Below are positions 2,405 to 44,981 of a stretch of DNA of 47,329 bases, in pieces; within the stretch, counting starts at the first letter, position 1; each line of letters begins with the position of its first letter. The notes under the pieces are model-generated. The model was not told the DNA's origin and did not search any database. It saw nothing but the letters and a program-made list of their open reading frames with translations. Origin of the DNA: Candidatus Woesebacteria bacterium (GTDB lineage: Bacteria > Patescibacteriota > Microgenomatia > UBA8517); the NCBI GenBank assembly GCA_963784785.1, contig CAWASW010000015.1:68149-115477 (forward strand). The letters run 5' to 3'. Position numbers and translations under genes: made by a program.

Positions 2405-3517
2405 TTATGATTTTATATATTTAGATATTGCAGTAATAAATTCCTTTTTGAAAATTTCTTTTGAAAATCGTTTTGCATTTTTTATTAGATTCTCTCTATT
2501 AAAACTCATTGTATCAAATTTTGCAATTGCATGTTTTAAACTCTCTATGGTTTGTTCTTTAAAGAACACCCCTGTAATTTCATCTATAACAGTATCAAGT
2601 GCACCACCTCGATTATAGGCAATAACTGGCACACCAAAACTTTGTGTTTCAACAGCAGTGATTCCAAAGTCTTCGTCTTGTGGCATCAAGAATGCTTTTG
2701 CATTGGAATATAGCTCCACGAGTTTCTCATCTGAAACTTGTCCTAAAAATTTTATATTACTTTTTGCTTTATGCTTTAAATTAAATTCTTCAGCACCAGT
2801 TCCAACAATTACCAAAGGAATATTCAATTCATTAAAAGCATCAATCAACAAATCAACTTTTTTATATCTCACCAACCGCCCAACATATAGATAATAATTT
2901 CCAATTTCCAATTTCCAATTTCCATTCAATTTCCAATTTCCAATTTCCATTGGGGGAAAGATAACTTCGCTCTCGCGATCGTAATATTTTTTAATTCTTC
3001 TTTGTACCTCAGATGATATTGCAATATATTTATCAGGTCTTTGAGACGCTGTTTTATCCCACCATCTTAAATAATTGATAACAGGTTTTGTAAGACCTTT
3101 AAAGGTCAAACCTTTGAAGTATATATCGTAACCACTCCACAGGTATCTAGTAGGAGTAAGGCAATAACAAACATGCAACGTTTTTGTACCCGTAATAATT
3201 CCTTTTGCTGCTTCAGATGTCACAGAGATAACCAAATCATATTCCGTAAAAGAGAATTGCTCAAAAGCAATTGGCATTAGCCATCCTAATAACTCATGGT
3301 GATTTTTTAATATTGGAATATTTTGCAAAAAAGAGGTATACACCTGTGGAAAAACTTTAGACCAAGAGGCTTTTTTCGAATCGTAAAGTGCCGTATAAAG
3401 TGGTGCATCTGGAAACATCTCATGAAGCGTTAATAGTACTCTTTCCGCCCCACCAAATTTATTTACGCGATCGTATACAATCGCAATTTTTAGTTTATTT
3501 AAATTTGTTTTATTCAT
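2405..3517 (-). CDS. GT4 glycosyltransferase
   Basis: GGAERV, GRLVRYK, EDFGITAVE (EX7E-type motif). Confidence 0.93.
   Translation of the reverse strand: MNKTNLNKLKIAIVYDRVNKFGGAERVLLTLHEMFPDAPLYTALYDSKKASWSKVFPQVYTSFLQNIPILKNHHELLGWLMPIAFEQFSFTEYDLVISVTSEAAKGIITGTKTLHVCYCLTPTRYLWSGYDIYFKGLTFKGLTKPVINYLRWWDKTASQRPDKYIAISSEVQRRIKKYYDRESEVIFPPMEIGNWKLNGNWKLEIGNYYLYVGRLVRYKKVDLLIDAFNELNIPLVIVGTGAEEFNLKHKAKSNIKFLGQVSDEKLVELYSNAKAFLMPQDEDFGITAVETQSFGVPVIAYNRGGALDTVIDEITGVFFKEQTIESLKHAIAKFDTMSFNRENLIKNAKRFSKEIFKKEFITAISKYIKS
2896..2948. repeat. Heptamer array (AATTTCC)4-ATTC-(AATTTCC)3 in the GT4 interdomain linker
   Basis: Read directly; encodes EIGNWKLNGNWKLEIGN. Confidence 0.95.
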
Positions 3518-3543: not shown

Positions 3544-3631
3544 ATTAACAAGCTCCCAAGGACAAAGGCCCGTGTGGCCGAGCTTTAAAAAGCTACTTGG
3601 AAAGTTGACCCCGCTTTATTGCGGGGTTTTT
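3544..3631 (+). ncRNA. Candidate structured small RNA convergent with DUF3800 gene
   Basis: Promoter upstream; stems AAGCUC/GAGCUU and GGCC-CGUGU-GGCC; possible pseudoknot CCAAG/CUUGG; terminator at the 3' end. Confidence 0.5.
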
Positions 3632-4192
3632 AATATTTTGAAATTTATATTCAATAAAAAGTTTATTTCGCTTTTTTAATCTTTTAATCAAAATTGAGGC
3701 ATCAGTACTATTTAAATTATCAACGCTGTATCTAGTTAAACCTGCTATAGAATCTGCTAATTGAATGCCTCCATACGAATCCTCTTTTCGAACTGATTTT
3801 AGTTTAGAAATTTTGATATCTTTATCTCTAAGTATCATCTTTAGTTTTCGTTCATATGACTTACTTTTTTTACCATCAATATAAATTATCTTTATGTTGT
3901 GCTCTGTAATAAGCTGCTGAAATACTAAGTCATACATATTATTTATGTTTATTGGATTCTCAAATAATGCAACTTTATATATAAAATCTAAATCTAATAT
4001 TTTATTAATATACTTTTGTCTAACTTTCCATCCATGCTCCGCCCAATGAAAACTGTTAAGCTTTAGATCATTTAGTATTTTTTTATAGCCAGTGTCAAAT
4101 TTTTCTTGATTGGATACTTCAAGATATACAACTGCTATAGTTGCATGACCTATCTTTGACCCAGTTCCCGATTCATCGATAAAAATGTGCAT
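3593..4192 (-). CDS. DUF3800 family protein (RNase H-like fold)
   Basis: MHIFIDESG N-terminus, YIDG, QLADSIAG. Start 4192 is preferred over 4228 because it avoids overlap with the NUDIX gene. Confidence 0.8.
   Translation of the reverse strand: MHIFIDESGTGSKIGHATIAVVYLEVSNQEKFDTGYKKILNDLKLNSFHWAEHGWKVRQKYINKILDLDFIYKVALFENPININNMYDLVFQQLITEHNIKIIYIDGKKSKSYERKLKMILRDKDIKISKLKSVRKEDSYGGIQLADSIAGLTRYSVDNLNSTDASILIKRLKKRNKLFIEYKFQNIKNPAIKRGQLSK
3608..3631 (+). terminator. Intrinsic terminator
   Basis: ACCCCGC-tttatt-GCGGGGT followed by a T run. Confidence 0.7.
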
Positions 4193-4196
4193 GGGT

Positions 4197-4751
4197 TTAT
4201 TTAAATATTTCAGGATGGTGAATTTCAACTAATTTAATTAATGCTAGAGTATCAGAAGCTTCTATCTCGCCTTTTTTTATTTTTTGGTTAATTTGTTCTA
4301 AAGGTACCAAAACCACTTCTATCTCTTCATTTTCATCAAAACATTGACCATTTACGAATTCAATATCATTTGAATAAAAACAATTAACTTGAACATTACT
4401 TTTTGATGGTTCTGTAATTATTTTTGATATAAATTCCAGGTTATTCAATCTATAACCTGTCTCTTCTAAAAATTCACGTATTGCTTCAGATATTACATCT
4501 GCTTTTTCATCAATTCTACCGGCAGGTAATTCTAATACTACTTTACCTATCCCATGTTTATATTGCTGAACAAAAACTACTTCGTTTTTATTGTTAACTG
4601 AAAATATCATAACGACATCACCCAATTGTTGAGAAAAATACTCAATAATTTTTCCACTCGGTAGTTCGACAGTATCCTTAACAAGCTTGAACCACTTACT
4701 TGGTGAAATATCTTCTTGTTTTAATATTTTCCAATTAGTTAATTGACTCAT
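4197..4751 (-). CDS. NUDIX hydrolase (ADP-ribose/NDP-sugar pyrophosphatase-like)
   Basis: LELPAG followed by Nudix box GRIDEKADVISEAIREFLEETGY. Confidence 0.9.
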   Translation of the reverse strand: MSQLTNWKILKQEDISPSKWFKLVKDTVELPSGKIIEYFSQQLGDVVMIFSVNNKNEVVFVQQYKHGIGKVVLELPAGRIDEKADVISEAIREFLEETGYRLNNLEFISKIITEPSKSNVQVNCFYSNDIEFVNGQCFDENEEIEVVLVPLEQINQKIKKGEIEASDTLALIKLVEIHHPEIFK

Positions 4752-11857: not shown

Positions 11858-13024
11858 TTAAATTGTAGCATTTCGTTTTGATCTTAATAAACTAAATCCA
11901 AGTAAAGCAATTAGCACAATCCCTAGATAAAAAGATACTGTTTTTGCAGATATAGAATCTGATATTCCCCCGATAAAATAAGCAGCCAACACATACGGAA
12001 TATTTTTGATCATATTAAAAGTCGAAAGTGTGGTCGTTCGAAATCTAGATTCTGTATTGTTGTTAATTTCGATCGATGACAAATTCCCAAAAACACTTTG
12101 CAGAGATGATCTGAATATCAAAGATAATCCTCCAACAACTAAGCCAACGTATGGTGAGACCAAATAAGAAACTGCGGTTAAAGCTCCCACAAATACAATT
12201 GATTTGTTGACACCGAACGTCTTTTTAATAAAGCTTGTTGACTGAGATGCAAAAGCTGAAAATATGAATATCACTGACCACAGTATTCCCATCTGTTTAT
12301 CAGTAAAGCCAAATTCAAAGCTTAAAAAGCTGTCGACCATTTCACTAGATATCACTGCAATGAATCCAAAAGACAGCAAAATTATTGTTTGTCTTTTGAC
12401 ATCAATATTTTTAAATAACTGGAAAAGACCTTCTTTCGTTTGTTTTAAATAGTTTGCAAAAGAAAATTTGACAGTATCCACATCAGGCTCGACTAAGAAA
12501 AATGAAGCAGCTAAACCTATTGTGTAACCAAAGGCATTCAAGATAAACGGCAATCTTGGATCAAAACCGTAAACAAACCCACCAATAACACTACACACAG
12601 CAGGAGCAAAAAGTGAAATAGAACTAATGTTTGATATTACCTTGTCAAATTTTCCCTCTTCTTTGTCCTGTTTTAGAGAGTCGAATACTAATGCTTCAAG
12701 TGTGCCTGAATAAAACGCGCCTCCTACACACATCACAAAAACAGAAATCAAAATCACGTTAAAACTAGGAGCAAAAGCCATCATATAAGCACCAATCGCT
12801 TCAAGCAAAAAGGCTAGTATCAACGTTTTCTTTTTTCCAAAAAGATCAGCTACTGCACCGGTTGGAATTTCAGCCAACGTCATAGTTACAATGAGAACAG
12901 TTTCAATTATTCCAATACCTGCATAATTTGTGAAGCTTAAGTAATAAAAGATCCAGATTCCAAGCCAGAACCAAGTGTTTTTAGCAAAAGTCAGGATATA
13001 GGCAATTGTGATATTATTTTTCAC
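11858..13024 (-). CDS. MFS transporter
   Basis: About 12 TM; EIPTGAVADLFGKK motif A; SGTLEALVFDS. Confidence 0.9.
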   Translation of the reverse strand: MKNNITIAYILTFAKNTWFWLGIWIFYYLSFTNYAGIGIIETVLIVTMTLAEIPTGAVADLFGKKKTLILAFLLEAIGAYMMAFAPSFNVILISVFVMCVGGAFYSGTLEALVFDSLKQDKEEGKFDKVISNISSISLFAPAVCSVIGGFVYGFDPRLPFILNAFGYTIGLAASFFLVEPDVDTVKFSFANYLKQTKEGLFQLFKNIDVKRQTIILLSFGFIAVISSEMVDSFLSFEFGFTDKQMGILWSVIFIFSAFASQSTSFIKKTFGVNKSIVFVGALTAVSYLVSPYVGLVVGGLSLIFRSSLQSVFGNLSSIEINNNTESRFRTTTLSTFNMIKNIPYVLAAYFIGGISDSISAKTVSFYLGIVLIALLGFSLLRSKRNATI

Positions 13025-14093
13025 TTGCCTCCTTGTAAACTTTTAGTGTTTCTTCTGCAGTCTTTGTCCAAGAGAAGTCTGCCACGCGTTTTAGACCTTT
13101 TGCAATTAAAGTCTTAGGCTTTGAAAGGGCTTCTTCTATGCCATCTGCAATCGAATTAACATCATAAGGATCAACCAAAACTGCAGCTCCTCCTGCAACT
13201 TCTGGCATGCTAGAAATATTTGATGTAACAACAGGAACTTCACAGTTAAATGCATCAAGAACTGGAATACCTAAACCTTCATAAAGAGATGGAAAAACTA
13301 AAGCGCTTGAACCAGTCAATAAGGCAGAAAGTTCATCATCAGGCAAATGTCCAAGAAATCTAACACCTCTTTCATCCTCAAGTTTGGTATTTATCTTCTC
13401 CCCAACAATAATTAATTTTAAATTCTTACCATATTTAGACAAATGATAAGCATCAATTATACTTTGAGTATTCTTTCTGGGGTTGGCTCCTATCGCAATT
13501 ATGTAATCTTCGCGAATTGCATATTTCTTTTTGATTTCTTCGACCTCATTAGATTTGGATAAATTTGGAGCCTCATAAATAACTCTAATTTTATTTTCAT
13601 CAAACCCTAATTCAATCAAATCATTCTTGGTGGCAATACTTGGGACAATAATAATTTTTGATTCTTTATTAACCCACTTTAACCTTTCCTTGTGTGTTTC
13701 CACTACTAACCTTGGGGTAATCTTTGAAAACTTCAAGGCTACTAAATCGTGCACCGTTGTAACTTTATTCATTTTAGATGGTGGCTCTGCCCAATCTGAA
13801 GTATGAACAGCATCAACCTGCCCAATCAACTTTTCAATTGGTAATATATGCAATTTATTCCAAACAATGTCAGCAATTCTGGGTGGAATCGGAAAAGTTT
13901 TTACAGTAGTTCTTGGAGTCAATCCTAAATCATTAATCTTAAATCTTAAATCTTTAATCCTACGGAGTGATCCACCATACAAAACATATTCGTTTTCTGA
14001 ATCAATTTTAAGTAAATTACGAACCAGATTCTCACGATAATGAGAGACTCCTGTACCATAAATTATTTGAGATAAGTCAATTGCGTAGCGCAT
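13014..14093 (-). CDS. GT4 glycosyltransferase
   Basis: TGVSHY, TVHDL, PRKN, EGLGIPVLDA. Confidence 0.92.
   Translation of the reverse strand: MRYAIDLSQIIYGTGVSHYRENLVRNLLKIDSENEYVLYGGSLRRIKDLRFKINDLGLTPRTTVKTFPIPPRIADIVWNKLHILPIEKLIGQVDAVHTSDWAEPPSKMNKVTTVHDLVALKFSKITPRLVVETHKERLKWVNKESKIIIVPSIATKNDLIELGFDENKIRVIYEAPNLSKSNEVEEIKKKYAIREDYIIAIGANPRKNTQSIIDAYHLSKYGKNLKLIIVGEKINTKLEDERGVRFLGHLPDDELSALLTGSSALVFPSLYEGLGIPVLDAFNCEVPVVTSNISSMPEVAGGAAVLVDPYDVNSIADGIEEALSKPKTLIAKGLKRVADFSWTKTAEETLKVYKEASEK
13920..13961. repeat. Heptamer array caatcct aaatcat taatctt aaatctt aaatctt taatcct
   Basis: Six units; encodes RIKDLRFKINDLGL in GT4. Confidence 0.9.
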
Positions 14094-15369: not shown

Positions 15370-16208
15370 TTTGATCCTTTTTTAGTAAACATGAAATCAA
15401 TTATACCGACGCAGATACCTGCGTCGAAAACTATTTTAAAAATTAAATAGGCAGGTAGCATATAGTACGTAGCACGTAGAATACCTAGGACAACAGATAC
15501 AGGTAGTGAACTTCTTACTAAGCCAACTAAGTAACCAAGTAACCCAAATTTATACTTTCTTTTTCCTACCCACTTTGCATGGTTATATATTTCCTTCAGA
15601 TTATCTGGATTTTTATGGAAAAATATTGCCTTCTCAGCAACTGTTGCATCGTAGCCTAATTTCTCAGACAAACTCCAATCGTCGTTGTAGCCGCCGGCAG
15701 TAAACCCGCCAACTTTATCAAATTCAGACTTTAAAATTGCTCTAAACACTTTTTGGGTATTAGGATAATTTTTTGGGTGTCTTCTTTTGTTTACCCAACC
15801 TTCGTTAACGTTATAGCATCTGGCAAAAACTTTGTCCCAGTTACTAACTATTTCATCTTTAGAAAATGTACCTTTTGATTTACCACTGATTATTGGTTTG
15901 ACCAACATTTTTAAAAAGTGTCTGTCAAAAGTCATGTCGCTATCAACAAAAACCAAAATATTGCCCTTAGCAATTTTTGCTCCTTCATTTCTTGCCCCTC
16001 CTGCTCCCAAGTGTTTTGTTTTTAATGTTCTGAATTGGAAACTGGAAATTGGAAATTGGAAATTCTGCAAAACTTCATAAGTTTTGTCAGATGATCCATC
16101 ATCTACTACTACTACCTCAAAATCATGAACACTCTGCTTAGCAAGAGAATTTAAGCAATCTAAAATTACATCTTCTTCGTTGTATGTTGGTATTATTACA
16201 GAAATCAT
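15366..16208 (-). CDS. GT2 glycosyltransferase
   Basis: SVIIPTYNE, VDDGS, FVDSD. Confidence 0.93.
   Translation of the reverse strand: MISVIIPTYNEEDVILDCLNSLAKQSVHDFEVVVVDDGSSDKTYEVLQNFQFPISSFQFRTLKTKHLGAGGARNEGAKIAKGNILVFVDSDMTFDRHFLKMLVKPIISGKSKGTFSKDEIVSNWDKVFARCYNVNEGWVNKRRHPKNYPNTQKVFRAILKSEFDKVGGFTAGGYNDDWSLSEKLGYDATVAEKAIFFHKNPDNLKEIYNHAKWVGKRKYKFGLLGYLVGLVRSSLPVSVVLGILRATYYMLPAYLIFKIVFDAGICVGIIDFMFTKKGSK
15454..15481. repeat. Degenerate heptamer array ggtagca tatagta cgtagca cgtagaa
   Basis: Four units; encodes LRATYYMLP. Confidence 0.65.
16032..16066. repeat. Heptamer array gaattgg aaactgg aaattgg aaattgg aaattct
   Basis: Five units; encodes NFQFPISSFQF; reverse complement of the 2896 unit. 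Confidence 0.9.
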
Positions 16209-20715: not shown

Positions 20716-21865
20716 ATTTTCTTCTTGCTTCTAGAAATAAATCAGTTGTACCAGATCCTATCATAAGCTCAGCGTCTCGTTCTAATTTTATACCACTAAA
20801 ATCGTTACTACCACTTTCGACTCTATCCAACACTTTGTACATTGATACTTTCTGCCAATTAGGAAATTCTTGCCAAGCAATTTTAGGCAATATTGATCTT
20901 CCTCCAAATATGACAAAAACAATCAAATAAAGAATAAAAGTTTTAAAGCTTAATTTTGGTAGTAACATCCCAAGATAAATCATTAAATATAAAAATGGCA
21001 TATATAAATAATAAATTTCTCTTCTATTAACAAGCATCGCAGCAGGTGTCAAAGTGATAAAAACCGTTGCCAATAGCGGCAAATAAATATATTTTTTAAA
21101 ATACACAAGAAGTCCCACTAATAGGATTAATATTTTGTAATCAATAAAAAACAAGTATCCTCCAAACAAATCAATTATTCTTTCCGCTGGAGTGTAAACA
21201 AAATTATCTCCTAATATTTTTTTGGTGACAAAAAAATATCCTGCATATATCCCAAACACAGCTGACATTAATAATAGGTAAAATATTTTTTTGCGATCAA
21301 GTTTGTAGAATAAAGATATCGAAAACAAAACAAGAGGAACCGTAACGGCTGTTTCTTTTGAAAAAAGAGCAAAAGCAAACGAAATTACTGAGAGATACAA
21401 TTTCTTTGGATAATATAAAAAAAAGAAAATCGTTAAAATACAAAATGTAGCTAATAAATTTTCATGGATATTTGAGTAATAAAATAGATAATTCTTGTTA
21501 AATATTACACTGACAAAAAACGAGGCAAATTCATTTTTCGTTAATTTTCGAACAACAAAGAATAGTAGCATTAAATTAATTGTATTTGTTAAAAACATAG
21601 CGACATCAAAAGCAAAGTGATTAATTCCAAATGTTTTTTGCAAGAATGCAAAGGCGACAAAACCTACCACCCTAGTAAATTCATTCATATCACCATGAAT
21701 AATAAAATCAGGAACAAATTGAATTATTGAATGATTTCTAAAATAAGCAATTTCAAAGAAGTCATCAACTGAAAAATAAGCGTTTGTCCTGACCGCATAA
21801 ACAAGATGAAGGAAGCTAAGAAAAACTAAGCCAACAATATATGGTTTAATACCCCACTTTTTCAT
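20708..21865 (-). CDS. GT-C-like membrane protein
   Basis: FSVDDF loop, ALFSKE, multi-TM. Confidence 0.75.
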   Translation of the reverse strand: MKKWGIKPYIVGLVFLSFLHLVYAVRTNAYFSVDDFFEIAYFRNHSIIQFVPDFIIHGDMNEFTRVVGFVAFAFLQKTFGINHFAFDVAMFLTNTINLMLLFFVVRKLTKNEFASFFVSVIFNKNYLFYYSNIHENLLATFCILTIFFFLYYPKKLYLSVISFAFALFSKETAVTVPLVLFSISLFYKLDRKKIFYLLLMSAVFGIYAGYFFVTKKILGDNFVYTPAERIIDLFGGYLFFIDYKILILLVGLLVYFKKYIYLPLLATVFITLTPAAMLVNRREIYYLYMPFLYLMIYLGMLLPKLSFKTFILYLIVFVIFGGRSILPKIAWQEFPNWQKVSMYKVLDRVESGSNDFSGIKLERDAELMIGSGTTDLFLEARRKYD

Positions 21866-22703
21866 TTTTGAACAACCTCCTTAATTTTTTAAACGGAGTC
21901 ACAATCATTGACTGTAGTCTGTAGACTGTAGACATTACAGCCCATGGTGAAGGAACAATTTCTGGTCTCTCTTTAAAAAACACTTCTGGATAATAAAAAT
22001 CTAGAGAAAAACTTAAACCTAATTCATGCTTTATTTTTTTCTTTCGTTTTGGAACATTAACAACCGAAGCTTCATATGAAGTTCGAGACAAAAAAGTAGT
22101 GTGTAAATACGGAGCATCAACAAATTTAAAAGTATTTCTGTCTTGGATTTGTTTACCGTCTTTATCTGCCCAGCCCCACACTCCGTGCTGACCTTCTGAA
22201 TGCAAACCTTCAATACTTCTTTTTACTGCTCTTAAATTAAAATGCCCTAATTTGTCTCCAAATTTATATCTTCCTGCATTATCAGGCTGCTTATGAAAAA
22301 TATCGCCTATTACGTTGACCGTCGGAACCACAATACTTTCCGTAGGAGTTCTTGTATTACTTGTAATACTTTTTATACATGTAACTACTTGTGTTATGGA
22401 TTCCTTCCACCATATTTCATCATCGTCGACAACAATAAACCAATCGGCTTCCGTTACATCTAGCATTGCCTGCCTTGCTGCCGGAAATGTCTCTGAAGTA
22501 ACTGCCCCATATTGCCTTAAATCAATTTTGTCCCCATATTTTTCCTTAAGCAATTTTGCAATTTCCCATGATTTATCAGTTGATCCAGTATCCCAAAGCA
22601 AAATTTTATCAACGTGATCAATTACTGAAGTAACTGAAAACCACAGCCATTTTTCACTATTTTTAAACAATGTATGTGCCCAAACTGTAGATTTAAGATT
22701 CAT
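21846..22703 (-). CDS. GT2 glycosyltransferase
   Basis: DTGSTD, ARQ, WFIVVDDDE. Confidence 0.88.
   Translation of the reverse strand: MNLKSTVWAHTLFKNSEKWLWFSVTSVIDHVDKILLWDTGSTDKSWEIAKLLKEKYGDKIDLRQYGAVTSETFPAARQAMLDVTEADWFIVVDDDEIWWKESITQVVTCIKSITSNTRTPTESIVVPTVNVIGDIFHKQPDNAGRYKFGDKLGHFNLRAVKRSIEGLHSEGQHGVWGWADKDGKQIQDRNTFKFVDAPYLHTTFLSRTSYEASVVNVPKRKKKIKHELGLSFSLDFYYPEVFFKERPEIVPSPWAVMSTVYRLQSMIVTPFKKLRRLFKNEKVGY
21910..21937. repeat. Heptamer array gactgta gtctgta gactgta gacatta
   Basis: Four units; encodes MSTVYRLQS. Confidence 0.85.
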
Positions 22704-22716
22704 GTTTATGATTTAA
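22690..22716. repeat. Heptamer array gatttaa gattcat gtttat gatttaa at the 3' end of the four-helix-bundle gene (inverted-repeat arm)
   Basis: 22690-22704 is the reverse complement of 23077-23091 at 14 of 15 positions; one unit is 6 nt. Confidence 0.8.
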
Positions 22717-23079
22717 GAATTCTTTAGAACTTCGTATTAGACCCTGTAGCAATTTGTGACTGGTATCTGCCTGCAATTTAATTTTCAAATACTCTTCATT
22801 AGGTAAATATTCAACATCTAATGCAATAATTAATTGATTTTTTAATTCTGTCAATGATCCTTGAGCCAAATAATAAAATTGAATTTTCTCCTTATAGGAT
22901 TGTCTTCCAAATCCTTCTGCAATATTCGAGGTAATCGACACAGCTGCTCTATGCATTTGATCGACAAGGGAATACATCTCGTCCCTTGGAAAATACTTTG
23001 TGCATTTATATATCAAAAGTACAAGTTTATGACTCTCTTTCCATGTCGTTAAATCTGTAAAATCCTTTATTGCTGTCAT
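22693..23079 (-). CDS. Four helix bundle protein (23S rRNA IVP / bAvd-like, TIGR02436-type)
   Basis: F.DL..W, FP..E.Y.L..QM.RAAVSITSNIAEGFGR, A.GSL.E. Confidence 0.93.
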   Translation of the reverse strand: MTAIKDFTDLTTWKESHKLVLLIYKCTKYFPRDEMYSLVDQMHRAAVSITSNIAEGFGRQSYKEKIQFYYLAQGSLTELKNQLIIALDVEYLPNEEYLKIKLQADTSHKLLQGLIRSSKEFLNHKHES

Positions 23080-23107
23080 AAATCTTAAATCGTATATCCT
23101 AAATCAA
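23077..23107. repeat. Heptamer array aaatctt aaatcgt atatcct aaatcaa abutting the four-helix-bundle start codon
   Basis: Four units at 23080-23107, directly upstream of the ATG. Confidence 0.85.
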
Positions 23108-23178
23108 TAAACTACACCTACGATACTATCATTTTATCCTAAATGAATTAAAATAACATATTAGATAATATTGAATAT

Positions 23179-25005
23179 ATGTGTGGCATATCAGGCAAGA
23201 TAAACTTTAACAAGAGAGAAGTTACTAGATACCAACTTCAACAAATGACTTCCAAAATAGCGCACCGAGGTCCTGACGCAACTGGATATTTTATTTCACA
23301 AAAGAAAAACATCGGTTTTGGCCATAACAGACTTGCGATTATTGATTTGTCAAAAAAAGGTAACCAACCCATGAGTTACCTAGATAGATATACTATTGTT
23401 TTCAATGGAGAAATTTATAACTATAAAGAAGAAAAGGAAAAACTTACAAAACTTGGTTTCATTTTTAACTCGAATTCAGACACTGAGGTTATCTTAGTCC
23501 TTTACGCAAAATACAAAGAGAAATGCCTTGCTCACCTAAGAGGAATGTTCGCCTTTGCCATCTACGACACCCATGAAGAAACAATATTTATTGCAAGAGA
23601 TAGGATCGGTAAAAAACCATTAAAATATTTTGCAAATGAAAATTGTTTTATCTTTGCATCAGAACTTAAGGCAATACTCACTCAGCCAGAAGTTCCAGTA
23701 TCTCCCGATAGTCTTGCTATACAGAAATATTTTCTATATGGTTATGTACCAGCACCACTTACAGGTTTCATGGGGATTAAAAAACTTAAACCGGGGCATT
23801 ATATAAAAATTGATATCAAAAGAAAAATAATATCCAATAGAAAATACTGGGAACCAAGGTTTATAGACAAATTAAATTTAAGTGAAAAAGAGTGGTCAAA
23901 TAAAATACTAGACACCCTTGAAGAATCTACGAAATTAAGAATGATTTCAGATGTTCCAGTTGGAGCATTTTTATCAGGTGGAGTCGATTCTTCTGCAGTT
24001 GTAGCGATGATGGCTCTCTCCTCTTCGAGTCGCATAAAAACTTTTACTGTCAAATATAAAAATAAAAAATGGAGTGAAGAAAAATACGCCAAAATTATTG
24101 TCAAAAAATACAAAACTGATCATACAGAAATTTTGGCAAAACCCACAGATATTTATGATCTGCCAGAAATTGCATATCAATATGAAGAACCATTCGCAGA
24201 TAATAGTGCGCTAGTTTCTTGTATGGTCAGCAGAGAGGCAAAAAAATACGTAACTGTAGCATTAAATGGCGATGGAGGTGATGAAAATTTCGCAGGCTAT
24301 CCTAATAGATATATGAGACTTAAGAGGGATGTAGATTATGGGTATTGGATTTCAAAATTAAGACCTCTTTCTGCTTTGAAAATTAAAAAGGTTTCAAACT
24401 TTTTAGATAAGTCAAAGTTGCCACTCTATGAAAAATTTGTTTCGTATAATCAAATATTTCCAATAGATGAAATATTAAAATTTTCGAGTGGCGATCTCCA
24501 AAAAACACTAACTACAAATAACTTATATAAATACGTAAGAAAAACATTCAATAGCTTTACAGGAAAAGATATTAAAAATGCAGGACTTAAATTTGATCTT
24601 CAATATTTTCTACCAGACCAGCTATTAGCCAAAATGGATATAGCCAGTATGAGAAGTAGTCTTGAGTCAAGATCTCCACTTCTAGATCACAAAATGATCG
24701 AACTTGCCTGCAAAATTCCATTCAATCTAAAAGTTAAAAATGGTGAATCAAAATACATATTCAAAAAAGCATTAGAAAAAATTGTTCCAAAAGAAAATCT
24801 ATATAGACCAAAAATGGGATTTACAATAAGTCTTGAAGATTGGTTCAAAGGAGATTTAAATAAATATTTTAGAGAAAAAATAAATAACAAATCATTACTA
24901 AATAACTATATTGATTTTAATAACATCACCTTGGACAATTATCAAAAGAAATGGAGTCTTCTAATGCTTGAGCTTTGGCTAGAAAATTATTTTTCGAACC
25001 AATAA
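23179..25005 (+). CDS. asnB: Asparagine synthase (glutamine-hydrolysing) family amidotransferase
   Basis: MCGI Ntn N-terminus, HRGPD, FNGEIYN, LSGGVDS, GDGGDE, ESRSPLLD. Confidence 0.95.
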   Translation: MCGISGKINFNKREVTRYQLQQMTSKIAHRGPDATGYFISQKKNIGFGHNRLAIIDLSKKGNQPMSYLDRYTIVFNGEIYNYKEEKEKLTKLGFIFNSNSDTEVILVLYAKYKEKCLAHLRGMFAFAIYDTHEETIFIARDRIGKKPLKYFANENCFIFASELKAILTQPEVPVSPDSLAIQKYFLYGYVPAPLTGFMGIKKLKPGHYIKIDIKRKIISNRKYWEPRFIDKLNLSEKEWSNKILDTLEESTKLRMISDVPVGAFLSGGVDSSAVVAMMALSSSSRIKTFTVKYKNKKWSEEKYAKIIVKKYKTDHTEILAKPTDIYDLPEIAYQYEEPFADNSALVSCMVSREAKKYVTVALNGDGGDENFAGYPNRYMRLKRDVDYGYWISKLRPLSALKIKKVSNFLDKSKLPLYEKFVSYNQIFPIDEILKFSSGDLQKTLTTNNLYKYVRKTFNSFTGKDIKNAGLKFDLQYFLPDQLLAKMDIASMRSSLESRSPLLDHKMIELACKIPFNLKVKNGESKYIFKKALEKIVPKENLYRPKMGFTISLEDWFKGDLNKYFREKINNKSLLNNYIDFNNITLDNYQKKWSLLMLELWLENYFSNQ

Positions 25006-29292: not shown

Positions 29293-30776
29293 TTTCTGAC
29301 AAGGAGTACAGCCCTGCCATTTTCTCTCTCATAATTATCCCCAGCCTTGAATTCATATTCACCCACAAATTTATAATTTGGTAGGATTTTCTGATTTTTT
29401 GGATTTTCAAAAATCTCCCTCCACTCTTCTCCCATATAGTAATTATCATCATCCATTTTGTAGGAAGTTAGATATATATAGTCAATTTTGGAGTCAGACC
29501 CCGAAAGATGATTCGGGGTTAATGGGAACCAAACAGTCTTCCTTTCTCCATACCAACTTCCCCAAGTATCAAGATTGGTAAGTATGACATCCTCTTTACC
29601 TGTAATTTCTTTTAATTTGTAGGACATTTCAGCATAAATTGGAGCCTTGCCAATATTATGCATTTTTCTCTCAAATCTAGAATCTAAAAATACTATTCCC
29701 AACGTCTGCCCTACTGCAAAAAATAAAACTAAAAATGTAGTTATCAATCCAACCATAACTTTTTTTGTTATTTTAAAATTGAATATTAAAAATTCATTGA
29801 AAATTGTAAATTGTAAATTGAAAATTTGTGTCAAAGTGGCTACTGCCACTATGTACACCAGTGGTACAACGGGATGAAGGTAACGGTAAAAGGGTATTGT
29901 TAAGGCCGTCACTAAAAATGTAAGCCCAGTCATGAATAGTACAGAAAAGTTAAATGGCGAATATTTTTTGCAAACTCCTATTACAAACAATACAAATAGA
30001 TATGGATTCATTATCTGAGGCATAGCTTTATAGAAGTTATATAAGTTATAAAAAACTTTTTTTATAAGTATTAGCAGATTAAAATCAACCGTAGAACCAC
30101 GTAGTGAATCAGAAACGGCCATGCCAGGTAAATTCTGTGTAACAGCAATCAGTCCTTGTTTTGAGAATAATGCGTAGAGTATTGTTCCAGCCAAGAAAGA
30201 TATAAATGTGTAGACCGAACCTTTCTTCCAACTGAAGTTATTTATAAAGTAATAAAGAATCAAACCAAAAATATAAATTATTGCTTGAGGACGAGTAAAG
30301 TACATCAAAACCATAAATACTAAGCCAAGTACATTCCCCCACCACTTTTTAATTGACAGGAAATATGTTCCAGCTAGTAGTTCAAAAATAAATGGTGATT
30401 CAGAGGCCCCACTTGTAGCATATTTAATTAGATCGTAATTAAAACCAACTGCAACAATAGATAAAACTGAAGTTAGTCTATCTTTGTAAATCTTCTGTGT
30501 TAAAAGAAAAACAAAAAGCAAAGTTAACAAAAAAAAGAAAAATGAAGTCGCAATAACTGCAAAATCACCTATACCAAAAATTTTAAAAAACAAAGATATT
30601 GAATATGGCATTACAGGAGATATCCAATCAGACATATCATACCCCCAGAAATTAAACATTGAATTAAATTCATTATTTAATATCAAATTTCTTCCAACAT
30701 CGGCATACTTAGCTGAATCTGAAAAAAATAAGTATAAATTATACATTTGTATAATAATTGTACTATTTAAAAGCAC
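29289..30776 (-). CDS. GT-C membrane glycosyltransferase (ArnT/PMT_2-like)
   Basis: FSDSAKY loop, SESPF, TRPQ, RY. Start may be 30746. Confidence 0.8.
   Translation of the reverse strand: MLLNSTIIIQMYNLYLFFSDSAKYADVGRNLILNNEFNSMFNFWGYDMSDWISPVMPYSISLFFKIFGIGDFAVIATSFFFFLLTLLFVFLLTQKIYKDRLTSVLSIVAVGFNYDLIKYATSGASESPFIFELLAGTYFLSIKKWWGNVLGLVFMVLMYFTRPQAIIYIFGLILYYFINNFSWKKGSVYTFISFLAGTILYALFSKQGLIAVTQNLPGMAVSDSLRGSTVDFNLLILIKKVFYNLYNFYKAMPQIMNPYLFVLFVIGVCKKYSPFNFSVLFMTGLTFLVTALTIPFYRYLHPVVPLVYIVAVATLTQIFNLQFTIFNEFLIFNFKITKKVMVGLITTFLVLFFAVGQTLGIVFLDSRFERKMHNIGKAPIYAEMSYKLKEITGKEDVILTNLDTWGSWYGERKTVWFPLTPNHLSGSDSKIDYIYLTSYKMDDDNYYMGEEWREIFENPKNQKILPNYKFVGEYEFKAGDNYERENGRAVLLVRN
29774..29826. 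repeat. Heptamer array: 3 units, CATT, 4 units (gaaaatt gtaaatt...)
   Basis: Encodes IFNLQFTIFNEFLIFNFK. Confidence 0.9.
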
Positions 30777-43361: not shown

Positions 43362-44029
43362 TTATATTTTAAACTTCCAAGCAATCAAATTTCCCAAGAC
43401 TCCAAAAGAATCCAAGATACTTACTCCTTTATAGCCATCATAGTATATCGTCGCTACTGGTATTTCACAATAACTTAGCGATTCTTTTTTAATCCTAACC
43501 ACCATTTCTGTTTCTACTCCATAACCTACTGACTCCCATTTGATTTTATTGTATGCAGATTTTGTAATTGCACGAAAACCTGATATTAAATCCGAAACGT
43601 ATATTCCATACATCAAACTTACTATAACTGACGCTACTTTATTACCAATATATCTAACAAAGGGAACACCTAAATTTAGATTTCTTGACCCAAAAACAAC
43701 ATCATATTTACCTTCAATCAATTTCTCTTCAAACTTTGGTAAATCTGAAACAAGATGTTGTCCGTCAGAATCCATTAAAATTACAGCATCAGCTCCATGG
43801 GAAAAAGCATATTCACAGCCAGTCTTAAGTGCCGCACCCTTTCCTAAATTTATCTTATGTTCTAGTAGCGTCATATTCTTAAATCTTGAATCTTTAATCT
43901 TAAATCTCGAGCGATCCGTCGACCCATCATCCACCACCACAATATCAATTTTGTTTTAGATAAATCTTTTAAAACTTGAAGAACTCGGTCCTCTTCATTG
44001 TGTACAGGGAGAACTATTGTTGTGTTCAT
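43362..44029 (-). CDS. GT2 DPM1-like glycosyltransferase, frameshifted near 43950
   Basis: MNTTIVLPVHNEE in one frame continues as IDIVVVDDGSTD...GKGAAL..DSDGQH in another; the break is in A-runs. Confidence 0.85.
43874..43908. repeat. Heptamer array tattctt aaatctt gaatctt taatctt aaatctc
   Basis: Five units; encodes RFKIKDSRFKN. Confidence 0.9.
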
Positions 44030-44058
44030 TGAAAATTGTAAATTGTAAATTAAAAATT
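44027..44058. repeat. Heptamer array catt gaaaatt gtaaatt gtaaatt aaaaatt spanning the fcl stop and GT2 start
   Basis: 44025-44058 matches 29793-29826 at 33 of 34 nt. Confidence 0.9.
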
Positions 44059-44981
44059 GGCTACGTACCATTCAATCGTTTCTTTTAGGCCTTTTTCAAA
44101 ACTGGTTTTTGACTCAAATCCAAATTCTTTTTTGGCACACTAACATCTAACTTCCTTCGTGGTTGGCCATCTGGTTTTGTTTTATCCCAAATAAGTTTTC
44201 CTTCATATTCGGTTAACTTTTTAATTAATTCTGCCAAGTCTTTGATAGAAATTTCAAACCCTGCTCCTAAATTTACTGGATCTGATTTGTCATATTTCTC
44301 ACAAGCCATTAATATTCCCTCTGCAGCATCTTTAACATACAAAAACTCTCTTGTTGCTTTACCACTGCCCCAGACAACAACTTCTTTAGCGTTACTATTC
44401 TTGGCCTCTACAAATTTCTTAATTAAAGCAGGGATAACATGTGATGATTCTGGATTAAAGTTATCTCCTGGGCCATAAAGATTCACTGGTAACAAATAGA
44501 TTGCGTTAAAACCATACTGATCTCGGTAACTCTGGGCTTGGACTAACTGCATCTTTTTAGCTAAACCATAAGGTGCATTTGTTTCCTCTGGATAACCATT
44601 CCATAGATTTTCTTCCTTAAATGGTACTGGAGTGAACTTTGGATAGGCGCAAATTGTTCCAAGAGCCATATATTTTTTAACTTTATTAATTCTTGCGGCT
44701 TTCATCATAAAAGTGGACATCAAAATATTTGCTTCATATAAATCTGCAGGAAATTCTCTGTTGTAACCGATTCCACCAACTTTGGCAGCCAAATGGATAA
44801 CAAGATCAATACCTTTTGAAGCTCTTAAACAATCTTCATAATTTGTTAGATCAAATATGTCTCTGTCGGCAATCCTAATTAGCTTTGGCTTGAACTGTTT
44901 TAAATTAGTCACTAAATGATTTCCCAAAAAACCTTTGCCTCCTGTTATTAAAACTTTTTTGTCTGACCAGTAATTATTCAT
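44050..44981 (-). CDS. fcl: GDP-L-fucose synthase, 1-nt frameshift near 44139
   Basis: GGKGFLG, LAAKVGGI, YGLAK, NLYGPGDNF..SHVIPAL, PDGQPR. The shifted frame gives the expected AKKEFGF...GLKETIEWY then TAA at 44050. Confidence 0.92.

Follow-up and report, generated by a model that had tools for sequence, protein, structure and literature searches.

Proteins of the PF05635 family were first seen in the intervening sequences (IVS) of 23S rRNA, and PF05635/TIGR02436 proteins are very common in bacteria, often with several copies per genome; decades after their discovery in IVSs, their function is still a puzzle. What such a gene represents when it lies among ordinary protein-coding genes is the question raised by a 47,329-nt stretch of DNA from a Candidatus Woesebacteria bacterium (GenBank assembly GCA_963784785.1, contig CAWASW010000015.1, positions 68,149 to 115,477; hereafter the window, with position 1 as its first letter). 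Here, a gene encoding a four-helix-bundle member of this family (the 4HB gene) is located between a GT2 glycosyltransferase gene and a divergent gene for an AsnB-type asparagine synthase, and a preliminary description of the DNA had reported inverted arrays of 7-nt units on its two sides, each holding a start codon. The evidence assembled below makes it fairly probable that the 4HB gene and its two arms constitute one discrete cassette of about 440 nt, of the rRNA-IVS type, lodged at a gene junction and with arms that pair in the transcript, and that the solo arrays found elsewhere in the genome are relics or derivatives of such cassettes. Direct observations comprise the arms, their locus-specific complementarity throughout the family, the presence or absence of the unit as a whole among relatives, its placement at gene junctions, and its co-orientation.

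The host genome (0.93 Mb in 21 contigs, 34% G+C, 93% complete) is typical of candidate phyla radiation (CPR) bacteria, and the window is AT-rich. In what follows, G000 denotes the host genome, G001, G003, and so on denote comparison genomes, Cn a contig, and Lnnn a locus.

Complementary arms around the four-helix-bundle gene

The 4HB protein scores above the cut-offs of both family profiles (PF05635, 127.1 bits against 33.8, covering residues 9-112; TIGR02436, 117.8 bits against 24), which places it within the family. Its nearest solved relative, judged by sequence homology alone, is XCC0516 of Xanthomonas (PDB 2GSC; E 4.7e-19). In an alignment of 11 sequences, Q41, R44, S48, N52, E55, and E78 are conserved, and R44, S48, N52, and E55, which are invariant or nearly so, make up an R..S...N..E motif, the corresponding family motif being GxxRxxxSxxxNxxE (PMC3936711). 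Only the PF05635 and bAvd profiles match the protein, and it does not qualify as an HUH/Y1 transposase. No rRNA match was found anywhere in the window; the 4HB gene is flanked by the GT2 and AsnB genes and is thus not located in a 23S rRNA helix.

The pair formed by 22690-22704 and 23077-23091 is the top inverted repeat of the region (15 nt, 14 of 15 positions or 93% complementary, 372 nt apart), and its sole mismatch, T opposite G, would become a G-U pair in RNA of the gene's strand (minus). Once read on that strand, the bracketing described earlier is confirmed: the upstream arm (23091->23077) terminates in the ATG of the 4HB gene, and the downstream arm (22704->22690) contains both the 4HB stop codon (22695-22693) and the ATG of GT2 (22703-22701), the two open reading frames (ORFs) overlapping by 11 nt. 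With gaps allowed, the arms of this locus (L003) lengthen to about 37 nt (Table 1), and the 3' arm then takes in the last nine 4HB codons with the stop codon and provides GT2 with its ATG and first codons. Tandem Repeats Finder (TRF) reports weak period-7 arrays at both arms (22690-22715 and 23079-23105). Over 24 loci of the family, the arms are about 85% complementary, and tandem units can pair in several registers.

As a chance test, the best ungapped complement between start flank and stop flank was scored for 959 ORFs of the host genome, with ORFs called crudely in the scripts as the longest ones of at least 80-90 aa. The scores had a median of 7, a 95th percentile of 10, and a 99th percentile of 12, which is also the score of this 4HB gene. 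A score of at least 12 was reached by 29 of the 959 ORFs, 18 of them copies of one IS200-like element; these 29 include four of the seven 4HB genes of the host genome, of which two take the first two ranks and the other two score 12. No enrichment of the bare 9-mer GATTTAAGA was apparent in the window (46 matches with at most one mismatch against 34 expected; 6 of 100 shuffles as high). On its own, the 15-mer is suggestive; in combination with the pattern seen throughout the family, it goes far beyond chance.

Arms across the four-helix-bundle family

PF05635 was found in 31 of 41 related genomes, with a maximum of 11 matches per genome, and in a control panel Bacteroides thetaiotaomicron was positive as well. 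For each locus, an arm score was obtained by local alignment of the upstream flank with the reverse complement of the downstream flank of the same locus, and the mismatched control paired each upstream flank with the downstream flank of another locus. For 36 loci of the host genome and its relatives, the matched median was 28 against 15 for mismatched pairs, with 24 loci above the 95th percentile of the control (22) and 16 above the 99th (28.4). A second sample came from species-representative genomes and covered many Patescibacteria classes, Bacteroides, Prevotellaceae, Dysgonomonas, Chloroflexota, Caldiserica, Nitrospirae, Verrucomicrobia, Elusimicrobiota, and Desulfosarcina; 77 of its 80 loci were scored, three being too near a contig end. 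Here the matched median was 33 against 16, with 42 loci above the 95th percentile (31) and 17 above the 99th, in a control inflated since many loci share similar units. The preliminary description had raised co-variation of the 5' and 3' heptamer types among homologues as a point to be examined, and both samples bear it out: the unit varies by locus and matches between the two sides.

Tandem arrays were present on both sides at 78 of 113 loci, on one side at 29, and on neither at 6. Periods of 7 or 14 accounted for 72 of 87 upstream arrays and for 84 of 98 downstream ones, and most of the others had periods of 8 or 16; control windows held an array of any kind in 45 of 226 cases and one of period 7 in 13. 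Upstream units were purine-rich in 76 of 87 arrays and downstream units pyrimidine-rich in 71 of 98, and this polarity relative to the ORF is preserved despite a complete turnover of unit sequences. The arms are therefore a family-wide and locus-specific feature, found across phyla that include CPR bacteria, Bacteroidota, Chloroflexota, Cyanobacteria, and Xanthomonadales.

Several genomes illustrate this diversity. The host genome has seven PF05635 genes, most with inverted repeats at their flanks whose sequences are quite different from one another. In Moorena, inverted heptamer arrays with other units bracket each of seven PF05635 copies. A single PF05635 gene is present in each of the two Xanthomonas genomes and the one Luteimonas genome searched; it is situated between accB and accC and bracketed by inverted GGGAATC-type arrays, a unit that is dispersed in those genomes.

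A different layout was observed at L004 of the host genome (G000:C14:20194-20917), 1.8 kb from another 4HB cassette. The product of this locus is a 240-aa protein that has a C-terminal extension in addition to its PF05635 domain; bracketing arms are lacking, and an inverted pair of units of about 10 nt lies entirely upstream of its ATG instead.

Presence and absence of the whole cassette

A DNA search of seven genomes of the same genus revealed two in which the GT2 and AsnB genes are adjacent, 51 nt apart in G001 (G001:C6) and 46 nt apart in G006 (G006:C9), with no 4HB gene between them. In the three-way alignment, each edge of the inserted segment is located about 10 nt or less from the outer end of a 37-nt arm, and homology breaks there (Table 1). 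The N-terminus of GT2 reads MNLKSTV-W in the host and MKI-W/F in the congeners; the old start codon of GT2 has been lost, and the cassette arm supplies a new start and about six codons. A weak promoter-like site on the minus strand (23194->23165) is directed into the cassette. Since the ancestral spacer with this site lies upstream of it, the cassette occupies the former 5' leader of GT2.

Two further cassettes behave likewise. The one at G000:C20:16596 (500 nt including its arms) is missing in seven of seven congeners, whose empty sites consist of a stop codon, a spacer of 1-30 nt, and the next gene, with the ATG only 4-6 nt past the stop in G005 and G007. The one at C3:114211 is missing in all six congeners with contigs spanning both flanks; stop and start codons overlap in two of them, and in G006 the site holds a 27-nt spacer that resembles the left arm. 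Arrays are lacking at the empty sites, even in the array-rich genomes G001 and G007, and the arms must therefore have arrived with the cassette rather than derive from a split host hairpin. Thus, the empty-site alleles that the preliminary description had suggested seeking in related genomes do exist in the same genus, and its proposal that the arms are the ends of a small cassette is upheld by whole-unit presence and absence together with complementary, locus-specific arms.

Two observations touch on these junctions. At the junction where G000 has the C3:114211 cassette, G001 carries an unrelated insert of 885 nt (L057; G001:C5:31114-31998), and this stop/start junction looks like a candidate insertion hot spot. 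At the locus in the window, a 17-nt direct repeat with 88% identity occurs once in the 5' arm (23095-23111) and once outside the insert, in the ancestral spacer (23135-23151); the empty-site alleles differ at a few positions of the second copy. The repeat could reflect similarity of the target site or spreading of the unit into the flank.

Placement and spread

Among 116 loci, the upstream neighbour is on the same strand in 94, on the opposite strand in 11, and not found in 11, with a median gap of 34 nt; the downstream neighbour is on the same strand in 87, on the opposite strand in 23, and not found in 6, with a median gap of 33 nt. With gaps of this size, the arms take up all of the intergenic space. 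Most of the closest named relatives of the cassette of the window are from Patescibacteria. Similarity confined to the cassette (70-75% over 420-455 nt) joins genomes with unrelated flanks, and some cassettes are conserved along with their flanks among related genomes; from these similarity and flank patterns, the cassettes are old, mostly kept vertically, and occasionally gained.

A putative stem in the transcript

The following mechanism is proposed. The cassette brought its own arms, which are imperfect inverted arrays of 7-nt units, rich in purines on the 5' side and in pyrimidines on the 3' side, and it sits ahead of a glycosyltransferase gene, between a promoter region and the start of that gene, not in an rRNA helix; it would be transcribed together with the host operon. 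In the transcript, pairing of the arms would create a long-range stem with the 4HB ORF in its loop, as happens with the arms of an rRNA IVS ahead of the RNase III cut. Such a stem may limit harm to the host transcript and may also restrain translation of 4HB, whose ribosome-binding region lies in the arm. In the simplest view, solo arrays and inverted pairs without an ORF would go back to such cassettes, as their relics or derivatives.

Folding predictions are consistent with this scheme. When the 466-nt cassette RNA is folded, the 15-bp stem appears in the minimum free energy (MFE) structure as well as in the centroid structure, with both ATGs inside it. A long-range stem in the MFE fold (at least 10 pairs between the first and last 95 nt) was predicted for 95 of 111 cassettes, with a median of 36 pairs, and for 75 of 207 nearby control windows of the same length, with a median of 6 pairs. 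The host genome encodes RNase III. Co-orientation with the upstream gene (90%) and the purine/pyrimidine polarity point weakly to the transcript as the working form, and, by analogy with the rRNA IVS, an RNase III-accessible stem in the operon transcript would be the most likely one; we infer that the arms may pair in vivo and be processed by RNase III.

The preliminary description had envisaged an IVS-like mRNA stem that hides both start codons. Its first element is consistent with the MFE and centroid folds here and with the 95 cassettes that form the stem, but lacks a signature of the sense strand, as detailed below. Its second element agrees with the predicted fold at this locus and fails as a general rule: the position of the arm relative to the start codon varies, and the upstream arm lies within 4 nt of the ATG in only about 10 of the 24 best loci.

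Dispersed heptamer arrays in the host genome

Period 7 is by far the commonest tandem-repeat period of the host genome (200 of 856 rows at score 30). At a TRF score of at least 36, its 0.93 Mb contain 115 heptamer arrays, against one in a second-order Markov shuffle, and a few unit families recur. Solo arrays of the host match its own cassette arms at a score of at least 14 in 59% of cases, against 11-24% for the arrays of four other genomes. Arrays also lie in frame within two GT4 and two GT2 genes of the window (2896-2949, 16033-16064, and the two solo arrays of Table 1). These in-gene arrays encode short, odd peptides in variable loops, and in the orthologues of array-poor congeners these places are taken by non-repeat sequence whose length is similar. 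With regard to a possible phase-variable simple-sequence contingency locus, in which the copy number of near-perfect repeats would shift the frame or the promoter spacing, the arrays are imperfect (75-92% matches); those within genes are in frame, and 82 of 98 comparisons with orthologues gave length differences that are multiples of 3. At orthologous spots, a period-7 array was found in 15 of 30 cases in G007, 6 of 22 in G001, 4 of 10 in G005, 0 of 22 in G003, 1 of 11 in G006, and 0 of 3 in G015; in the array-rich congeners, it is often of a different unit and similar length.

Several inverted array pairs without an ORF, with spacers of only 12-60 nt, are present in the host genome, and two inverted pairs enclose 4HB remnants (C3:45389-45802, E 6.5e-4; C15:11556-11705, E 2.4e-3). 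Remnant-bearing and ORF-less pairs can therefore be arranged as a decay series leading from a cassette to a bare hairpin.

Array density was compared in 10 genomes, nine of them as partial samples of 174-400 kb and G000 as a whole. Among 4HB-positive genomes, it amounted to 124 arrays per Mb in G000, 95 in G007, 87.5 in G001, 105 in G026, and 5 in G017; among 4HB-negative genomes, it was 7.5 in G003, 5.7 in G006, 50 in G005, 5 in G015, and 0 in G024. In the Xanthomonas order, 25 of 41 PF05635-positive genomes were rich in G3N4 arrays, against 5 of 60 PF05635-negative ones (odds ratio 17, Fisher p 1.7e-8, ignoring kinship). A genome was counted as array-rich at 20 or more matches with at least 5 per strand, both strands being required because poly-G runs inflate some counts; units without a high G content go undetected with the G3N4 pattern.

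Such arrays have been described before. Rehm et al. (2015; PMC4692102) reported 186 GGGAATC heptamer arrays in X. campestris (Xcc), 70 convergent pairs among them, and similar arrays in Nostoc, and in the accessible part of their report no origin is given; the units, GGGAATC in Xanthomonas and GGGGA(C/T)T in Nostoc, are treated there as G-quadruplex motifs. The terms S23, 23S, and four-helix proteins each have 0 occurrences in the accessible main text of that paper. In the literature searched, which excluded subscription papers, no paper was found in which PF05635 genes located outside rRNA are connected with inverted heptamer arrays at their flanks or with heptamer repeats dispersed in genomes.

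Some arrays of the host genome deserve separate mention. Those of ATTGAAA/AATTTAC type at 44028-44059 and 29796-29826 of the window have the arm unit of the C20:16596 cassette, and the former abuts the ATG of a GT2-like gene. A ribosomal protein S13 gene (G000:C17:13004-13858) and a pilin-like gene (C15:11086-11555) have inverted arrays of opposite polarity, pyrimidine-type upstream and purine-type downstream, and the upstream array of the pilin-like gene is the 3' arm of a 4HB remnant; opposite polarity would be expected if these arrays are arms of neighbouring decayed cassettes.

A 144-aa ORF resembling IS200/IS605-type TnpA, with an HUH motif, is present in at least 18 copies in G000 (e.g., C1:67192-67626 and C5:36163-36597, which are identical), a large burst for 0.93 Mb. 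All listed copies have the same 12-nt inverted pair at the ends of the ORF. A link between this multi-copy element and the arrays was rejected, the ends of the element being unrelated.

Weighing the explanations

Several results weigh against the reading of the gene and its arms as an IVS-type cassette that pairs in RNA and leaves solo arrays behind. The fold energy of the whole cassette is no better than that of shuffles (z -0.14; 46 of 100 as good), the antisense strand forms the long-range stem equally (96 of 111 cassettes against 95 of 111 for the sense strand), and a G-U wobble test on 110 mismatched arm columns of 24 loci revealed no bias (73 transversions, 20 sense G-U, 17 antisense). 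No target-site duplication was seen at the three junctions, and neither a transposase nor another known mobility enzyme was found in the cassette; since no transposase is present, the means of movement is a matter of inference. Among the 116 loci, there are no copies more than 90% identical in different contexts; recent movement is thus not shown, and recent transposition was rejected as an explanation. Loss in the relatives instead of gain here is a formal possibility, the comparison being unrooted. As for the solo arrays, 46 of 98 comparisons at orthologous spots (59 arrays, set against parts of the relatives' genomes) are within 3 nt of equal length, which simple insertion relics would not be, and relic decay alone fits Xanthomonas poorly, with one PF05635 gene per genome against 186 arrays in Xcc according to the accessible part of PMC4692102. 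Three other accounts fare worse. A cis-regulatory RNA stem only, that is, a translational switch for 4HB and GT2 that evolved in place with neither cassette nor mobility, would suit the position of both ATGs within the predicted stem and the coverage of the -12 to -6 region by most upstream arms of the best loci; it is very unlikely, however, given that the whole unit is missing at orthologous junctions of congeners at three sites, that cassette-only similarity extends across unrelated contexts, that arm positions vary relative to start codons, and that the family with its arms is also found in rRNA. Insertion of the gene into the loop of a pre-existing heptamer-array hairpin, with arms that are host sequence split in two, was rejected as highly improbable on the empty-site evidence (stop, short spacer, next ATG, and no arrays in G001, G006, and all seven congeners for the C20 cassette), even though the host genome has ORF-less inverted pairs with short spacers and the G006 site of the C3 cassette holds its left-arm-like spacer. 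A chance match in an AT-rich genome would agree with the lack of 9-mer enrichment and with a locus score that alone reaches only the 99th percentile, but the recurrence of arms in 113 loci from many phyla, with controls, leaves it a negligible probability.

The most serious competitor takes its model from REPIN-RAYT systems, which consist of REP sequences and an associated tyrosine transposase whose gene is flanked by inverted copies of a dispersed short repeat. By analogy, the 4HB protein would be a trans-acting partner that binds, maintains, or spreads arrays of its own unit; the gene with inverted arrays would be the autonomous form, and solo arrays and ORF-less pairs would be non-autonomous partners, not relics. 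This alternative, which is rather unlikely on present evidence, draws on the excess of heptamer arrays over the shuffle, their generally higher density in 4HB-positive genomes, the association in the Xanthomonas order, the match of solo arrays to the arms of their own genome, and the different-unit arrays of similar length at orthologous spots of array-rich congeners; it also draws on the single gene of Xanthomonas and Luteimonas, bracketed by a dispersed GGGAATC-type unit, of which the accessible part of PMC4692102 counts 70 convergent pairs in Xcc. Yet the family has no known or predicted catalytic activity, and binding is purely hypothetical here. There are exceptions in both directions: G017 has five PF05635 matches and only 5 arrays per Mb in 200 kb, G005 has no match and 50 per Mb, and in the Xanthomonas order 16 positive genomes are without G-rich arrays and 5 negative ones have them. 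Shared ancestry could yield much of the association, and a unit that tracks protein relatedness is also expected from simple co-inheritance. On our analysis, the one-gene/many-arrays pattern of Xanthomonas, the genome-specific units, and the length-neutral replacement would fit such a partnership better than passive decay. It can thus be proposed, tentatively and with the balance of probability still on the other side, that one widespread system has PF05635 proteins and dispersed heptamer arrays as its two halves, with the protein recognising and maintaining or spreading arrays of its own unit; the system would act at intergenic junctions, in rRNA (as IVSs), and in frame in variable protein loops.

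Implications

Non-rRNA copies of PF05635 emerge from this analysis as the same kind of element as the IVSs, namely discrete cassettes with arms predicted to pair, located between the stop and start codons of operons, which sometimes donate a start codon to a neighbouring gene. The nature and movement of IVSs thereby become testable in ordinary operons of tractable bacteria. The analysis also ties the family to tandem heptamer arrays previously described without explanation in Xanthomonas, in Nostoc, and earlier in cyanobacteria, and the layout of the cassette may explain the origin of these puzzling bacterial 7-base repeat arrays, which also rewrite glycosyltransferase loops in a CPR genome. 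Should the two-halves proposal be true, rRNA IVSs, the STRR-type repeats of cyanobacteria, and the GGGAATC repeats of Xanthomonas would have a common origin, and the very common "hypothetical" PF05635 family would obtain its first function; if the link is causal, it would represent a new class of repeat/gene partnership shaping intergenic regions and protein loops across phyla.

Features of the window

The coordinates of the cassette, its parts, its neighbours, and two solo arrays are collected in Table 1. Elsewhere in the window, an Rfam DUF3800-II RNA was detected at 3545-3610 on the plus strand, with 62.4 bits where the gathering score is 43.2; it overlaps an ORF of the opposite strand (3593..4228) at that ORF's 5' end.

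Table 1. Positions of the cassette and related features in the window
Feature	Position	Strand	Basis or remark
4HB gene, 128 aa	22693..23079	-	PF05635 23S_rRNA_IVP, E 4.2e-37; TIGR02436 "four helix bundle protein", E 2.5e-34
Inserted cassette, 431-442 nt relative to the empty-site alleles	22683..23124	-	Three-way alignment; right edge 22683-22694, left edge 23124-23127 ambiguous
Upstream (5') arm, purine-rich degenerate GATTTAA-type heptamer array	23080..23116	-	Abuts the 4HB ATG (-37..-1); inner 15-mer with ATG, 23077-23091
Downstream (3') arm, complementary to the 5' arm	22686..22721	-	Inner 15-mer, 22690-22704
Retained ancestral divergent AsnB/GT2 intergenic region	23125..23178	.	Counterpart, by alignment, of the 46-51-nt spacer in the empty-site alleles
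GT2 glycosyltransferase, downstream of the cassette	21846..22703	-	PF00535, E 4.5e-9
Asparagine synthase (AsnB-type), divergent neighbour outside the cassette	23179..25005	+	PF00733, E 7e-84; marks the far side of the insertion site
Solo GATTTAA-type array, in frame in a GT4 gene (13014..14093)	13921..13959	-	
Solo GATTTAA-type array in a GT2-like gene	43877..43907	-	Just past the DDGSTD motif

Comparison with known systems

Avd, the accessory protein of diversity-generating retroelements (DGRs), belongs to a pentameric four-helix-bundle family (PMC10053308) and shows distant homology to the 4HB protein (PF22296 bAvd, E 9.8e-7; NF033474, E 7e-6), but both matches are below the curated cut-offs (29.7 against 40 bits and 26.3 against 80 bits, respectively). 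With Avd models below cut-off and no reverse transcriptase (PF00078) in the 93%-complete genome, a DGR was rejected. A transposon or miniature inverted-repeat transposable element (MITE) with terminal inverted repeats was likewise discarded, in that the arms differ between all copies, no target duplication accompanies the three junctions, and the sole multi-copy transposase seen, the IS200-like one, has unrelated ends of its own. A defence system was also set aside, with no PADLOC match.

With REPIN-RAYT, the present elements share a gene placed between inverted copies of a genome-dispersed repeat that often forms inverted doublets, and a repeat type that fits the resident gene and is lacking where the gene is lacking, apart from G005, G017, and 16 plus 5 of 101 genomes in the Xanthomonas order. 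They differ in that 4HB is a small helical bundle without HUH/Y1 motifs, that the repeats are tandem heptamers and not palindromic REPs, and that many heptamer arrays lie in frame within genes, replacing sequence of equal length.

Dispersed heptamer repeats are also known as the STRR repeats of cyanobacteria. The arrays of Xanthomonas and Nostoc, as far as the accessible part of PMC4692102 describes them, resemble those of the host genome in consisting of tandem 7-nt units, in numbering hundreds per genome, and in being mostly intergenic and often in convergent pairs; the units of the host genome differ in being AT-rich and tied to a gene cassette.

The closest counterpart is the ORF-bearing IVS of 23S rRNA, known from Leptospira, from Coxiella, and with S23p ORFs of the Xanthomonas type. 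According to the accessible parts of the reports, the inverted-repeat borders of the Coxiella IVS form a 28-bp stem that is cut by RNase III, the element carries the S23p ORF, and mobility has been proposed for IVSs (PMC4990558), and in CPR bacteria 23S_rRNA_IVP ORFs occur within insertions of both 16S and 23S rRNA genes (PMC11270868). The cassette of the window has, like an IVS, terminal inverted repeats for which a stem with the ORF in its loop is predicted, and the two kinds of element share a PF05635 protein, a length of about 430-750 nt bordered by stem-capable inverted repeats, and sporadic presence and absence among relatives, as far as those sources describe them (PMC4990558, PMC11270868). 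What distinguishes the cassette is its location, between protein-coding genes at stop/start junctions and not in rRNA, and the composition of its arms, which are degenerate tandem heptamers whose unit varies between copies.

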